Below the pieces are notes generated by a model, which worked only from the letters and a program-made list of their open reading frames with translations, made no database searches and had not been told where the DNA came from. DNA of 42,441 bases from Escherichia coli (lineage in GTDB: Bacteria; Pseudomonadota; Gammaproteobacteria; Enterobacterales; Enterobacteriaceae): NCBI RefSeq assembly GCF_003334385.1, contig NZ_QOWN01000037.1. One strand, written 5' to 3'. Positions 2,534 through 18,430 of the stretch are shown here, piece after piece (position 1 is the first letter of the stretch; each line of letters starts with the position of its first letter). The position numbers were made by a program, and so were the translations under genes.

Positions 2534-4414
2534 TTAATACTCCGTCACGTTTTCCTGTCGCCACGCCTCGTCATATTCCGATTTCGGCATATTGGCGATG
2601 TAGCTATAAGGCGATCCTGATTCAAGTTGCAGGAACTGGTGCGATTGCTCGTCAAGGAACAACGGGACACCACCTTCCCAACCTTCGCCGTTACGTTGTT
2701 TTTCAAGCATCAAAACAGATGCCGGAGATGCCAGTAGCTGTTCGTCCTTCTCTGACATCTTTTCACCACTCTGAACTCTCTGTAACGCTCTCTCGCGAGC
2801 CTTGTTACGCCAGATGATGAAAAGGTTGTCTGTCAGGTCTGTTATCGCTCCAGAGCCTTTTACGTCCATTTTCCCGGTTGGTTTTTCTTCGCTGTCTCCT
2901 TTTCGCGAGTGAGTAACGAGAATGACGTGGGAGTTTGTTTTGTTTTTGAAGTCGCAAATCAAGTCAACAAACGCCTTCTGCCCGTTATAGTCATCGTCGC
3001 CTATGCCACATTTCATCAGGCTGTCGATGATGAATAACTGGATCCCGTATCGGCGGCGAGCGTAGTCGAATATTTCGATCAGCCTGTCGGCTTTCGCCGT
3101 TCCGGTCAGGCCAAACACCCAAAGTCTTTCGTCATAAAATTTAAATGCAGAGTCAATTTCCAGCACTGGCGGCATCTTGCAGCACGTCGCCTGACGGGTA
3201 AGGCGCTTAAGGAGAATACCAGGCTTCAGCTCAAGTGACGCGATGCACGTCTTCACACCCTGACGCATTGCCTCAAGTGCCATATGCCCGACAACCTCCG
3301 TTTTTCCGTGACCGTTCACACCATTGACCAGCGTCAACTCGGCCTCACGGAACTGGAATTTATCTGCCAGAGATTCCCACGGTGGATTAAACAGATACTG
3401 CTGCTTGCCGTAGAAAGCGTTGATAGTGTCCTGGTAAAACTCTCGCGCGCTGTAGAGTTCTTCAGGATCGAAGTAGGATGCCGTGCCGATGTACTGCCAG
3501 ATTTCATCCTCGGTAACACCGTTCATCAGGCATTCGTTGATGTCTTTGTACGGCAGAGTAACAAGACGGCAACGATGTTCACCGAGTCGGCTTGCGATTT
3601 CCCTTGCGGCTTCACGACCAACATCATCAACGTCCATCGAGATGAATATTTCCTCAAACCTGTCGAGGTTGTGATACTCAAACTCAATCCACTGTTGCTT
3701 AGCGCCTTTCCCGCCACCAAACGGCACGGATAACGCCGAGATGCCGTATTGCGCATAGCTCATACAATCAATTTCGCCTTCGCAAAGTACAACCGCCCTC
3801 ACGCCAGCGTCCAGAGCCTGCCATCCGAACAGACAAGGTTCACAATCACCTTCTGCCATAATGACTTTCTTCCCGTCCGGGCGCTCAGTGCTGATTCGCT
3901 TGACCTGCAACAACTCACCATCGCGTTTGTACGGAAGCACCAGTGCATCAAGTTCTCGTTCTCCATTCCACACCTTGCCGCTGACAACCTCGTAGCGCTT
4001 TACGACTTCTGGCGATATGCCACGCGATTGCAGGTACTCAAGATGGGATTCTGTTCTGGTAACGTAGCGGGCGATTTTCTTGCGGTCAGGTCTGGAGAAT
4101 TTCTTCTCACGTTTGGCATCGAAATGGTGATCGTCATCCTTGATTCCGAGAAAGGCTTTCGCTTCCTGCATAGCCTGATGCAGGTTAATTCCTCGACATG
4201 CCATCCACAAATCAAGCATGTCACCGCCGTCCCCCTCAGCGAAATCAGCCCATTTTTTCTTGCCGCTAAGGTTGACCTTAAGGCTGTTTCCCTTGTCACC
4301 GTTGACGTTACCGGCAACCCACTCATGCCCCTCTTTCTTGCCGTTTGGCAACAGGTGCGGAGCCACCCTGTCAACCTGCGCCCAAAGCAGGTCGCTAAGT
4401 TCACTTGGCCTCAT
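2534..4414 (-). CDS. Replicative primase-helicase (N-terminal TOPRIM primase fused to C-terminal DnaB/SF4-like P-loop helicase)
   Basis: 626 aa; TOPRIM-like LCEGEIDCMS followed by DVDDVG; Walker A GVNGHGKTE and Walker B-like LFIIDSLMK in the C-terminal half; GAGGG RBS; sits where lambda P would be. Confidence 0.7.
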   Translation of the reverse strand: MRPSELSDLLWAQVDRVAPHLLPNGKKEGHEWVAGNVNGDKGNSLKVNLSGKKKWADFAEGDGGDMLDLWMACRGINLHQAMQEAKAFLGIKDDDHHFDAKREKKFSRPDRKKIARYVTRTESHLEYLQSRGISPEVVKRYEVVSGKVWNGERELDALVLPYKRDGELLQVKRISTERPDGKKVIMAEGDCEPCLFGWQALDAGVRAVVLCEGEIDCMSYAQYGISALSVPFGGGKGAKQQWIEFEYHNLDRFEEIFISMDVDDVGREAAREIASRLGEHRCRLVTLPYKDINECLMNGVTEDEIWQYIGTASYFDPEELYSAREFYQDTINAFYGKQQYLFNPPWESLADKFQFREAELTLVNGVNGHGKTEVVGHMALEAMRQGVKTCIASLELKPGILLKRLTRQATCCKMPPVLEIDSAFKFYDERLWVFGLTGTAKADRLIEIFDYARRRYGIQLFIIDSLMKCGIGDDDYNGQKAFVDLICDFKNKTNSHVILVTHSRKGDSEEKPTGKMDVKGSGAITDLTDNLFIIWRNKARERALQRVQSGEKMSEKDEQLLASPASVLMLEKQRNGEGWEGGVPLFLDEQSHQFLQLESGSPYSYIANMPKSEYDEAWRQENVTEY

Positions 4415-4521: not shown

Positions 4522-5382
4522 TCACCTGTCGAAAAACACGTAGCCTGTTTTCGATACGGTGATTGCGGATGATGGTTTGGATTGTGGTTGAATGGTTTCT
4601 GGCTTCTCGTCGTTCCAGCGTTGACCGTTCAGGTAGCTCGATGGTAACAACCTGTCGAATCCGAACTGCTTACCATTCCTGCATGCGATGTCTTCTGCCA
4701 GCATCGTGGCAAACTCGCTTGCCGTACCCCTGGTAGTTTTACGCCATTCCCTGAACTGTGTTCTGAATGCCGAAGCTGCGTTTTTCTTCCCGGCCTTCCG
4801 CATGCCTGCACACCAGAATATTTCCTCGAATGCCTTGTCGGTTTCTTCGTGACGGTCAGGTGATTTTTCACACTCCGTCCGAACACTTTCGGACATAGTG
4901 TTTTTATTATTTCTTTTTTCTTTTGTAATAGTTTCTTTTGTGTGTCCCTGTTTTGGTGACAGCGCTGTCACCGTTTTGGTGACACTTTTTGTCACCAATG
5001 CAGTGACATTATCACCAGAGTAGTGACACCCTTCGATTTGCCATTCCTCGATGTTCTTGTTAGGCCCGATTTGCTGGCCTTCGCGAAGGATAACCTTCAT
5101 CGCGATAAGCTCATTCTTGGCCTTGTTTACCTTCTGTCTTGGCAGCCTGGTAATTTGAGCTAACTGACTATCAGAGATGCGATCCATCTTTTTACCGTAG
5201 CCGTATGTTTTACGGCATATGGCGTGGGCAACCTTGCTCTGATTTTTCGTTAAATCTGCGCCGATAAGCTCTTCATACAGGGCATTTGCAAGACGGGTAT
5301 AACCATCTTCAACTTCTGCCACACGACGCTCCACAGGCCGTTGTGAAGGCCTTAAATGTGTTACGGTTGCAAGATTACTCAT
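4522..5382 (-). CDS. O: Replication initiator O (lambda-O-like N-terminal domain, divergent C-terminal domain)
   Basis: N-terminal region ([56 protein letters not shown]...GPNKNIEEW) parallels lambda O; iterons lie inside the gene. Confidence 0.8.
4895..5031. repeat. Phage replication origin inside O: four iterons plus adjacent AT-rich region
   Basis: GGTGACAGCGCTGTCACC (4955-4972), GGTGACACTTTTTGTCACC (4978-4996), GTGACATTATCAC (~5003-5015) and GTGACACC (~5023-5030) at ~23-bp spacing, each with internal dyad; AT-rich stretch 4895-4940. Same organisation as lambda ori. Confidence 0.7.
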
Positions 5383-5521
5383 GACCTTTCTCCTTCTGCA
5401 TCAGCTTCACTTTTTCCAACTCAGCCCGGAATCGACCAGGCTGCTTGAAGCTGGACAGGAAGCGATCACGTAGTATGTGTTTGTGAATTTTGTCCTGGTA
5501 AGGACTGAGTTGTTTTGTCAT
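5375..5521 (-). CDS. Small basic protein (48 aa) between cII and O
   Basis: [48 protein letters not shown]; GGAG RBS 5 nt upstream; its 3' end overlaps the O start by 8 nt. Confidence 0.4.
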
Positions 5522-5555: not shown

Positions 5556-5834
5556 TCAGGCCTCGAAGAATTCGCCGTTCTTCGGGGCTTTTTCTTTTGT
5601 CAGCATTCTGGCTACTTTCTTAGCCAGTTCCGCCAACTCCTCGTCTTCAACACCCCATTCAAGAACAGCCAGAAGCATTCCCATTTTTGGGATGAAGCTG
5701 TCTTTCCATCGCGAAATTTGCGATTCATTAATCCCTAACGCGTCGGCAACCTTTCGCTGACCACGTACAGCAATTCGATTCAGGATGTTGCTTGTAATTG
5801 CATTCGCTTTCTTGCGAGTACTTGTAAGTTGCAT
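5556..5834 (-). CDS. cII: CII transcriptional activator
   Basis: 92 aa with the lambda-CII-like core ([42 protein letters not shown]); located after cro and nutR. Confidence 0.85.
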
Positions 5835-5892: not shown

Positions 5893-5938
5893 TCCCGCAT
5901 TTCGGCGGGAATGAGGACCATGACTGTTAAAGAGCGGT
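5893..5938 (-). promoter_or_regulatory. nutR (boxA plus boxB hairpin)
   Basis: Minus strand carries CGCTCTTTAACA (boxA) then a TCCCGC-CGAAAT-GCGGGA hairpin (boxB); the same elements recur at nutL. Confidence 0.7.
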
Positions 5939-5942
5939 GTTA

Positions 5943-6143
5943 CTATTTGTTTTTCTTGTTGCTTGGGAAAGGACGAACTTCCTCTCCAATCACACTGCCA
6001 TCAGGCTTTACCGTAACCATAATGTTACGGCCTGCCAGAATGGCCTTGCTGATAGCGCACTGGATTACACCAAAGTCACTGGCTGCTTTAGCCTGTCCAT
6101 GGATTTTGGCGTAATCGGCAAGTGTCATTCGAATCATATGCAC
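5943..6143 (-). CDS. cro: Cro repressor
   Basis: 66 aa ([58 protein letters not shown]) close to lambda Cro; the true start may be the second ATG at 6137. Confidence 0.85.
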
Positions 6144-6243: not shown

Positions 6244-6960
6244 ATGGAAAATAAAAAATCACTGACGACAGAACAGCTCGAAGACGCTAAGCGGCTTAAG
6301 GCTTTGTATGAGTCAAAAAAGAAAGAATTGGGAATAACCCAATACTCAATCGCTGATGAACTGGGTATCACCCAAGGAGCGGTAGGGCATTATCTTAATG
6401 GCAGAAACGCGCTAAACGTTGAGGTCGCATCTGGTTTTGCACGATTGTTGCAAGTCTCAATTGCTGATTTTAGCCAGTCAATTGCTGCCAAGGTTGCAGA
6501 ACAGGCAGAAAGCCTTAAGAGCGATGCCAACGTAAGGTATGCAGGGGAATACAGAGCAGGAAAGAGGTATCCGGTGTTAAGCAGTATCCAGGCTGGCTCG
6601 TGGTGTGAAGCATGCGAACCATACACCATTAAAGACATAGATGTTTGGCTTGAGTCTGACGCGCATATTCAAGGTAATGCGTTCTGGCTTAAAGTGGAAG
6701 GTGATTCAATGACGGCACCGGTTGGGTTAAGCATTCCAGAGGGAACATTCGTTCTTTTCGATACCGGAAGGGAGGCGATCAACGGCAGCTTGGTCATAGC
6801 AAAACTTTCTGACTCTAACGAAGCAACATTCAAGAAGCTGATAATCGACGGCGGAAATAAATACCTCAAGGGACTTAACCCTGCATGGCCTCTCGTGCCA
6901 ATCAATGGAAACTGCAAGATTATAGGCGTTGCAATTGAGACAAAACTAAGGCTGGTTTGA
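6244..6960 (+). CDS. cI: CI prophage repressor (HTH plus S24 LexA-like autopeptidase domain)
   Basis: 238 aa; parallels lambda CI in the N-terminal region (LTTEQLEDAKRLKALYESKKKELGITQ) and the C-terminal domain (FWLKVEGDSMTAP...FKKLI); the DNA-binding helix differs. Confidence 0.85.
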   Translation: MENKKSLTTEQLEDAKRLKALYESKKKELGITQYSIADELGITQGAVGHYLNGRNALNVEVASGFARLLQVSIADFSQSIAAKVAEQAESLKSDANVRYAGEYRAGKRYPVLSSIQAGSWCEACEPYTIKDIDVWLESDAHIQGNAFWLKVEGDSMTAPVGLSIPEGTFVLFDTGREAINGSLVIAKLSDSNEATFKKLIIDGGNKYLKGLNPAWPLVPINGNCKIIGVAIETKLRLV

Positions 6961-6979: not shown

Positions 6980-7348
6980 ATGGTTGGAACCGCTATAGCA
7001 AGCTTTTTTGGGATGTTGGCAATCTCAACAATTTACGGCTTAGCGCATGCTTTTATTGCGAAATCTCTATCAGAAAAAATAAGCCAGGCTTGGGCGCATA
7101 GATCAGCTCGTTTCATGATTCTAGTGGTCATAGCAATACAAGGGATATCTGCATTTATCCTCTATGGATCAAGCTTATACCTGTTGTATCAAGGCGCGAC
7201 ATTTACGCCTTACACCAGTGATTACGGAACTCTATACGATGGTAGTGAAGACATCTCTATGGCTTGGATCGTCTTTGGTTTATCTATGGCCGTGTCTGTT
7301 GTAGCAGACATCATTAAGGTAATTCTCGTCTTAACCTTCGCTGACTAA
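6980..7348 (+). CDS. Small 3-TM membrane protein co-transcribed with cI (rexAB position)
   Basis: 122 aa with three hydrophobic segments (residues ~4-27, 44-66, 93-120); strong RBS AAGGGGG 7 nt upstream; 19 bp after the cI stop. Confidence 0.6.
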   Translation: MVGTAIASFFGMLAISTIYGLAHAFIAKSLSEKISQAWAHRSARFMILVVIAIQGISAFILYGSSLYLLYQGATFTPYTSDYGTLYDGSEDISMAWIVFGLSMAVSVVADIIKVILVLTFAD

Positions 7349-7489: not shown

Positions 7490-7531
7490 GTATTTACACA
7501 ATAAAATACCTGCAGTATTCTTTAGCCATCA
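7490..7531 (+). promoter_or_regulatory. oL operators and pL promoter
   Basis: AATACCTTGGGTATT (7490-7504) and AATACCTGCAGTATT (7515-7529) match the oR dyads; -35 TTTACA (7503-7508) and -10 TATTCT (7526-7531) with a 17-bp spacer overlap them. Confidence 0.6.
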
Positions 7532-7566: not shown

Positions 7567-7608
7567 GGCTCTTTAACATTGATGGGATTGTCCCGCCGAA
7601 ATGCGGGA
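7567..7608 (+). promoter_or_regulatory. nutL (boxA plus boxB hairpin)
   Basis: GGCTCTTTAACA followed 12 nt later by TCCCGC-CGAAAT-GCGGGA, identical in hairpin to nutR. Confidence 0.65.
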
Positions 7609-7779
7609 ACCAAAGAGTAGTTGGCTTTGGGGTGTGGTGAAGGGTTCATGGACGGGAATATGTCGCACGTAAAGCGGCGAGGCCTGCGGGACTATTGCCG
7701 AATTGAAGTCGGACGAAGCGGGTCGAAATGGGTCTCCCACCTACCACACCACCAAAGCTAATCATCTGAGGAACAGAAA

Positions 7780-15745: not shown

Positions 15746-16793
15746 GCGCCGGGATTTACCCCCTAACCTTTATATAAGAAACAATGGATATTACTGCTAC
15801 AGGGACCCAAGGACGGGTAAAGAGTTCGGATTAGGCAGAGACAGGAGGATAGCAATCACTGAAGCTATACAGGCCAACATTGAGTTATTTTCAGGACACA
15901 AACACAAGCCTCTGACAGCAAGAATCAACAGTGATAATTCTGTTACGTTACATTCATGGCTTGATCGCTACGAAAAAATCCTCTCCAGCAGAGGAATCAA
16001 GCAGAAGACACTCATAAATTACATGAGCAAAATTAAAGCAATAAGGAGGGGTCTACCTGATGTTCCACTTGAAGACATCACCACAAAAGAAATTGCGGCA
16101 ATGCTCAATGGATACATAGACGAGGGCAAGGCGGCATCAGCCAAGTTAATCAGATCAACACTGAGCGATGCATTCCGAGAGGCAATAGCTGAAGGCCATA
16201 TAACAACAAACCCGGTCGCTGCCACTCGCGCAGCAAAATCAGAGGTAAGGAGATCAAGACTTACGGCTGACGAATACCTGAAAATTTATCAAGCAGCAGA
16301 ATCATCACCATGTTGGCTCAGACTTGCAATGGAACTGGCTGTTGTTACCGGGCAGCGAGTTGGGGATTTATGCGAAATGAAATGGTCTGATATCGTAGAT
16401 GGATATTTTTATGTCGAGCAAAGCAAAACAGGCGTAAAAATTGCCATCCCTACAACATTGCATGTTGATGCTCTCGGGATATCAATGAAGGAAACACTTG
16501 ATAAATGCAAAGAGATTCTTGGCGGAGAAACCATAATTGCATCTACTCGTCGTGAACCGCTTTCATCCGGCACAGTATCAAGGTATTTTATGCGCGCACG
16601 AAAAGCATCAGGTCTTTCCTTCGAAGGGGATCCGCCTACCTTTCACGAGTTGCGCAGTTTGTCTGCAAGACTCTATGAGAAGCAGATAAGCGATAAGTTT
16701 GCTCAACATCTTCTCGGGCATAAGTCGGACACCATGGCATCACAGTATCGTGATGACAGAGGCAGGGAGTGGGACAAAATTGAAATCAAATAA
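15723..16793 (+). CDS. int: Lambda-type tyrosine integrase
   Basis: 356 aa, MGRRRSHERRDLPPNLYIRNNGYYCYRDPRTGKEFGLGRDRRIAITEAIQANIELFSG... essentially lambda Int as recalled. Confidence 0.95.
   Translation: MGRRRSHERRDLPPNLYIRNNGYYCYRDPRTGKEFGLGRDRRIAITEAIQANIELFSGHKHKPLTARINSDNSVTLHSWLDRYEKILSSRGIKQKTLINYMSKIKAIRRGLPDVPLEDITTKEIAAMLNGYIDEGKAASAKLIRSTLSDAFREAIAEGHITTNPVAATRAAKSEVRRSRLTADEYLKIYQAAESSPCWLRLAMELAVVTGQRVGDLCEMKWSDIVDGYFYVEQSKTGVKIAIPTTLHVDALGISMKETLDKCKEILGGETIIASTRREPLSSGTVSRYFMRARKASGLSFEGDPPTFHELRSLSARLYEKQISDKFAQHLLGHKSDTMASQYRDDRGREWDKIEIK

Positions 16794-18227: not shown

Positions 18228-18430
<203 letters not shown>

Follow-up and report, generated by a model that had tools for sequence, protein, structure and literature searches.

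The 42,441-nucleotide stretch of Escherichia coli DNA analyzed here (referred to below as the window) very probably carries the early antitermination module of an HK620-type lambdoid prophage. Promoter, nut sites, N gene, and downstream terminator-like sites stand in the canonical arrangement. Coliphage HK620 is reportedly the subject of Clark et al. 2001, J Mol Biol 311:657. Judging from the sequence, the sites and the N gene of the window are already known, since they are the same as those annotated in HK620 (2001). Between positions 5400 and 8400, the window is 98% identical to HK620, HK630, HK140, mEpX2, and several Stx phages. At these sequences, the HK620 record (AF335538) annotates "nutL; putative N-utilization leftward", "nutR", and "antitermination protein N", and it also annotates pL/OL1-3, pR/OR1-3, and tR1. 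The "leftward" direction of lambda corresponds to the + strand of the window, and RNA polymerase coming from pL (+) or pR (-) transcribes a nut site, N being made from the pL transcript. The features of the module and of the adjoining genes are the following, with the basis of each assignment in brackets.

2534-4414, - strand: primase/helicase-like gene (ORF list)
4522-5382, - strand: O-like gene (ORF list)
5556..5834, - strand: cII, the first gene past nutR (ORF list, HK620 annotation)
5893..5910, - strand: nutR boxB hairpin, 18 nt as in nutL (sequence scan, fold)
5925..5935, - strand: nutR boxA, starting 8 nt past the cro stop codon (exact match, ORF list)
5943..6143, - strand: cro, first in the pR operon, with nutR just downstream (ORF list, HK620 annotation)
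6244-6960, + strand: cI (ORF list)
7493..7521, + strand: pL promoter-like site, TTTACA-17-TATTCT (consensus scan; matches the HK620 pL/OL1-3 annotation)
7568..7578, + strand: nutL boxA GCUCUUUAACA, of the rrn/consensus type (exact match)
7591..7608, + strand: nutL boxB hairpin, UCCCGC-CGAAAU-GCGGGA (sequence scan, fold, position inside the HK620-annotated nutL)
7620..7762, + strand: long N-leader hairpin with the base GGCUUUGGGGUG.../...CACCACCAAAGC, of the 933W sequence type (fold, alignment)
7780..7899, + strand: 39-aa ORF MLDIMTNPILGGLVTTFAICFGFTIWSEVDDWMWERKNK, inserted past the leader hairpin and ahead of the N ribosome-binding site (phrog_7482)
7940..8212, + strand: N antiterminator gene, 90 aa plus stop (Pfam, phrog, HK620 identity)
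7973..8026, + strand: codons of the N arginine-rich motif (ARM), residues 12-29, NARNRRRARRQAQREQAM (by-eye register on the A-x-x-R-R-x-x-R-R core)
9740..9761, + strand: intrinsic-terminator-like hairpin with a T run in the pL operon, equivalent of HK620 tL2A (terminator scan, homology)

The initial annotation had reported that nutL and nutR share an identical boxA and a boxB with a 6-bp stem and a 6-nt loop, and this is what the window contains. The boxA 11-mer GCTCTTTAACA has exactly two copies in the 42,441 bases, at 7568-7578 (+) and 5925-5935 (-), as has the boxB 18-mer TCCCGCCGAAATGCGGGA, at 7591-7608 (+) and 5893-5910 (-), all of them oriented as transcribed. The coordinates given earlier were right to within 1-3 nt, positions 7567 and 5938 taking in flanking bases. 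On the transcribed strand, boxA lies upstream of the hairpin in both copies, separated from it by a spacer of 12 nt in nutL and 14 nt in nutR, and the transcripts thus carry one boxA-spacer-boxB element after pL and another after cro. The nutL boxA is found ~40 nt past pL on the + strand (nutL covering 7568-7608), and nutR extends from 5935 to 5893 on the - strand. At pL, the alignment of the window with HK620 is near-identical, and the position of the pL-like site would place the transcription start ~40 nt upstream of the nutL boxA.

By itself, the boxA 11-mer is not significant, as two or more matches with at most one mismatch occur in 21 of 100 shuffles. The boxB 18-mer, allowing up to three mismatches, has on average 0.03 matches per dinucleotide shuffle, and two matches were obtained in none of 100. 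The hairpin that it encodes, TCCCGC-CGAAAT-GCGGGA, combines the 6-bp stem with the 6-nt loop CGAAAU and folds at -10.5 kcal/mol (z = -3.1), with equally good folds in 0 of 200 shuffles. The boxB RNA of the HK620-type pair reads 5'-GUCCCGCCGAAAUGCGGGAAC-3', and in nutR the stem can be extended to 8 bp (AUUCCCGC/GCGGGAAU). The boxA common to nutL and nutR is the plain rrn/consensus form; its presence in both sites is expected and is not phage-specific. The rrn boxA-spacer is ugcucuuuaacaa (PMC2724277), and the phi21-type boxB of DE3, HK629, mEp235, and PA28 is preceded by the same 11-mer.

Regarding the N gene, Pfam reports a hit of ORF 7940-8212 with PF25694 N_peptide (E = 2.9e-15) and a second hit assigns it to phrog_271 (anti-termination protein N-like, E = 1e-33). 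With 95.6% identity to HK620 N in addition, the earlier identification of this ORF as N is confirmed. A GGAGG ribosome-binding site precedes the gene by 7 nt. Within the pL operon, the gene stands at the head, past nutL and the long leader hairpin. Identical N proteins are named 'transcriptional antitermination N peptide' by PGAP, and the cluster comprises 491 member sequences. NCBIfam returned no match for N or its neighbours at E <= 0.1. The ARM aligns with those of lambda, P22, and phi21 when the N termini are lined up by eye on the common A-x-x-R-R-x-x-R-R core, the motifs then reading DAQTRRRERRAEKQAQWK in lambda, NAKTRRHERRRKLAIERD in P22, TAKSRYKARRAELIAERR in phi21, and NARNRRRARRQAQREQAM in the window. 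The arginine core is retained and the C-terminal half is unlike that of the three phages, in agreement with the earlier remark that the ARM differs from that of lambda N.

N as a whole had been called divergent, a description that applies to the ARM and not to the rest of the protein, the centre being phi21-like and the C-terminus H-19B/933W-like. N is a mosaic: residues 33-64 are near-identical to phi21 N (~98% DNA identity over 8038-8131), and at its C-terminal end it has the same 22 residues as 933W N, VCLPNVAIYAAGYRKSKQLTAR (93% DNA identity over 8142-8213). In the domain map of lambda/H-19B N, the ARM binds boxB, the centre NusA, and the C-terminus RNA polymerase (PMC3526286). Therefore, with the ARM as the only divergent part, it is only the RNA-recognition module that is special here. 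A PDB sequence search with N returned no solved relative of its ARM, the only matches being spurious ones with RNF168.

Just past N and in the opposite orientation, a 179-aa gene (8234-8773, -) is assigned to phrog_1301 (superinfection exclusion). This sieB-like gene occupies the place of P22 sieB and stands where HK620 has hkaQ/hkaP. On its other side, ~700 bp downstream of the live N, lies the leftover 3' end of a phi21/CUS-3-type N (8887-8973, +), which encodes ...YYRKPRSEMGVTCVGRQKMKLGSKPLI, is 97.7% identical to CUS-3, and matches the C-terminus of phrog_271. The last 55 nt of this remnant also follow the 933W N gene. This layout suggests that a CUS-3-like N was the ancestral state and that it received the sieB-like gene and an H-19B-type C-terminus by insertion.

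In the window, nutL and N are separated by a leader of 331 nt, vs 107 nt in HK620. Among the relatives, its length ranges from 107 to 561 nt, and the leader is therefore an insertion hot spot. Its architecture with a long hairpin is likewise found in lambda, P22, phi21, and HK620, the hairpin base being common to all, and over 7625-7764 the window matches the 933W N leader at 95.7% identity. The leader is a mosaic, with a hairpin of the 933W sequence type in a nutL-N module that is otherwise of the HK620 type. In the stem next to the base, HK620 and the window differ on both strands. Directly past the hairpin, at the place of the N ribosome-binding site of HK620 and lambda, the window has the 39-aa ORF, which possesses its own GAGG site and encodes a hydrophobic membrane peptide. 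According to the alignment, this ORF is absent from HK620 and mEpX2; tblastn returned no match for it against phage records, and it carries no PGAP annotation. The exact peptide is present on about 800 contigs; in each of the 10 contexts read, an N gene with an ARM of the HK620 type follows the ORF at 40 nt. Should N be autoregulated through the leader hairpin as in lambda, the ORF would be in the regulated position. Rfam analysis reports no family over the nut sites or the N leader, the window matching only Lambda_thermo and naRNA4. The former (cIII thermoregulator; 10216-10274, +; 88.5 bits) is located at the start of a cIII-like gene in the pL operon.

The HK620 annotation places tR1 between nutR and cII. 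In the pR operon of the window, the terminator scan, which is blind to Rho-dependent sites, detected no intrinsic terminator corresponding to tR1, which is presumably Rho-dependent. In the pL operon, the same scan reports terminator-like sites at 9596-9615, 9740-9761, and 10180-10199. The window segment 9636-9769 is homologous to the tL2A-containing region of HK620, and the hairpin at 9740-9761 is a probable antitermination target. A strong terminator-like hairpin with a T run is also found at 5558-5590 (+), antisense to the 3' end of cII, and in position and predicted shape it corresponds to the terminator of the lambdoid oop RNA. Between cI and pL, where lambda has rexAB, a gene encodes a 122-aa predicted membrane protein (6980-7348, +), a homologue of HK620 hkaS (phrog_6534).

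Further to the right, from ~17000 to 42441, the window has essentially no phage matches over 25 kb, and the small-RNA family naRNA4 (CssrE), which we take to be REP-derived, is found at 18280-18350 (-). The window is therefore made up of the left arm of a prophage and of host chromosome. ORF 15723-16793, the last large ORF before ~17 kb, may be the integrase, and no tRNA was found in the window.

If the module works as in lambda, P22, phi21, and H-19B, N would bind boxB on the nascent RNA, and boxA would recruit NusB/NusE (S10). The phi21-like centre of N would contact NusA, which would also bind the spacer, while the H-19B-like C-terminus would lock onto RNA polymerase. The polymerase modified in this way would read through tR1 and the tL terminators, so that cII-O-P would be expressed rightward, and cIII, kil, and the recombination genes leftward. 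What sets specificity appears to be the ARM-loop pair. The boxB loop displays a GAAA core flanked by C and U, and one speculative idea is that it folds as a genuine GNRA tetraloop with a C-U mismatch as its closing pair. We would put at slightly below even the chance that the ARM NARNRRRARRQAQREQAM and this boxB represent a further N-boxB class, orthogonal to those of lambda, P22, and phi21, in which a GAAA tetraloop sits on a C-U mismatch and both stem and loop are read. Reading of both would explain a stem that never varies. Such a class would supply an orthogonal peptide-RNA tether ready for use, and would allow the role of the second half of the motif in loop specificity to be tested in a natural setting. 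Orthogonality to lambda or P22 can nonetheless not be assumed from these sequences, because ARM and boxB do not correspond strictly one-to-one, as 933W N and the P22 boxB indicate.

N ARM and boxB loop co-vary between the lambdoid phages lambda, P22, and phi21. For the present pair, it had been argued that a different loop implies a co-evolved ARM, and comparison upholds this through module swaps and through the match of nutR across exchanged immunity cassettes. Among the reference phages, the ARM of the window is joined to an H-19B-type C-terminus (window, HK620), to a P22-like one (mEpX2), or to a full phi21 one (CUS-3), and the boxB loop is CGAAAU in every case. HK629 has the centre and C-terminus of HK620 N but the phi21 ARM, and its boxB is that of phi21, UCUCAAC-CUAACC-GUUGAGA. 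These natural module swaps support co-evolution of ARM and loop, as far as sequences can speak for it.

The same association was examined in larger sets of loci. When 80 IMG/VR loci were selected by their N protein, the exact boxB was present at nutL in 76 and at nutR in 75, the exceptions being loci that are truncated, that carry an IS insertion, or that are rearranged with a breakpoint within boxB. Damaged versions of the module include L050, where nutL is replaced by an apparent IS element that ends within the leader hairpin, and L034, L054, and L246, where the breakpoints fall inside boxB and leave as a remnant only ...CGAAATGCGGGAAC or ...ATGCGGGAAC. Conversely, 120 viral loci were chosen by their DNA, using the nutL pattern only (boxA, 12 nt, boxB), and 108 of them are informative in having enough downstream sequence. 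The ARM core N[AT][RK]N[RHS]RR[AE]RR is found in all 108, and in 107 the ARM is invariant apart from rare single substitutions; it is joined to at least six different C-terminal modules. In L167, a distant relative, N is far more divergent and the leader is unrelated, and yet 40 of the 41 nutL nucleotides are retained. Loci selected by the phi21-type nutL served as the mirror test: TAKSRYKARR is present in 90 of the 93 that are informative, and their C-terminal modules come from the same pool. No locus is cross-typed for ARM and boxB in about 200 loci.

The distance between nutL and the ARM codons is only 110-560 nt, and their co-occurrence is therefore partly plain linkage. Being located beyond the exchanged immunity cassette, nutR is the only site whose result escapes this objection. 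HK620-type loci have the CGAAAU boxB at nutR in 83 cases out of 84 and another boxB type in none. The immunity cassettes between nutL and nutR are of at least four types or lengths, and four different cro 3' ends abut boxA. The nutR spacer is variable at several positions, but boxA and boxB are not. In phi21-type phages (L253 and related loci), the nutR stem (UUCACCU/GGGUGAG) differs from the nutL stem, the loop CUAACC being common to both, with a minority of nutR loops reading CUAACA, CUAAUC, or CUAACU. By comparison, the pairing of ARM and boxB thus appears cognate at the nutL sites of both types (108/108 and 90/93) and at nutR (83/84). Stem covariation was not found, all copies of the CGAAAU-type boxB having the same stem, and the 28 IMG/VR loci with a CGAAAT loop and another closing base pair after an exact boxA are all stemless chance matches. 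The argument is accordingly one of conservation, position, and association.

A first alternative accepts the nut sites as real and holds that the ARM is not private, so that N may bind several boxB types and the association reflects descent and linkage. In its favour, the ARM has the A-x-x-R-R-R-x-R-R core in common with the N proteins of lambda and PhiR57_1, two phages with a GAAA or GAAAA core in the boxB loop; the boxB stem lacks covariation; and 933W N has its own ARM and yet a boxB identical to that of P22. We nevertheless regard this alternative as unlikely, given that nutR, beyond an immunity cassette exchanged among at least four types, is mismatched in none of 84 + 79 loci, and that phi21-type phages keep the loop despite different nutL and nutR stems, which is what reading of the loop would predict.

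The remaining alternatives do away with the nut sites themselves. As an inverted DNA repeat with one copy on either side of the cI-cro region, the 18-bp element might be a palindromic, operator-like protein-binding site flanking the immunity region at the DNA level rather than an RNA hairpin. This is very improbable: its centre is non-palindromic, both copies have the same polarity relative to transcription, boxA precedes each of them on the transcript at a nut-like distance, OL and OR are separate elements in the HK620 annotation, and the element co-varies with the RNA-binding ARM, not with the repressor type. More improbable still is a role of the hairpins, independent of N, as transcription terminators or RNase processing sites, even though they are stable, G+C-rich, and located in leader regions. 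Indeed, neither copy is followed by a U run (GCGGGAACCAAAG, GCGGGAAUACAAC), both are missing from the list of the terminator scan, and it is the long hairpin at 7620-7762, a separate element, that represents the RNase III-type structure known from lambdoid N leaders. In HK022, the position of N is taken by Nun, a protein with an ARM that halts transcription at the nut sites of another phage, and the HK022 genome has protein-independent put RNAs in place of cognate nut sites. A Nun-type exclusion factor was considered as well and rejected, as the window carries two cognate nut sites; the C-terminus to which the last 22 residues of N are identical belongs to an antiterminator, 933W N.

The preferred reading, an HK620-type antitermination module, matters little for discovery and describes an ordinary N-boxB pair, which is very common in E. 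coli prophages, as the N cluster of 491 member sequences indicates. Among the papers searched, no binding or antitermination experiment on this pair was found. As a further orthogonal peptide-RNA pair, it would be an inexpensive candidate.

Compared with known systems, the window is closest to HK620. Both have the same nutL boxA, spacer, and boxB, nutR boxA and boxB, ARM, and immunity type (cI, cro, hkaS), and the alignment reports an identical nutL in the window, HK620, and mEpX2. HK620 differs in having neither the 933W-type leader interior nor the 39-aa ORF, and in carrying hkaQ/hkaP downstream of N. In mEpX2, the ARM of the window is joined to a P22-like C-terminus. Phi21, as represented by DE3, HK629, mEp235, and PA28, has in common with the window the consensus boxA, a hexaloop boxB of similar size, and the architecture of the leader. 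However, its ARM is GTAKSRYKARRAELIAERR, its loop is CUAACC, and its nutL and nutR stems differ, whereas those of the window are identical.

Lambda has the same layout, with pL, nutL, leader hairpin, and N on one side and cro, nutR, and cII on the other, the same ARM core, and the same GAAA core in the loop. In contrast, its boxB, GCCCU-GAAAA/GAAGA-AGGGC, is a pentaloop on a 5-bp stem instead of a hexaloop on a 6-bp stem, and its boxA, CGCUCUUA (PMC2724277), is non-consensus. The second half of the window ARM differs from that of lambda and has no Trp at the position of lambda W18, and the rest of lambda N is not alignable with the window N, the phi21-type remnant excepted. H-19B/933W N has been studied experimentally (PMC3526286). 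Unlike the window, 933W has the ARM GNSRSRRRERLKAKA and the P22-like boxB GCGCUGACAAAGCGC, and no consensus boxA was detected in its nutL. In P22, the N-terminus of gp24, MTVVITY, resembles the MTVITYG of the window N, and boxA is of the consensus type in both; the P22 boxB, GCGCU-GACAA-AGCGC, has the pentaloop GACAA, and its ARM is GNAKTRRHERRRKLAIERD. Lastly, PhiR57_1 (L090) possesses an N whose ARM, GTAASRRRARRANLQSQ, displays the same RRRARR core as the window, together with a boxB, about 110 nt upstream of N, that is closed by a plain GAAA tetraloop (UGGCU-GAAA-AGCCA).
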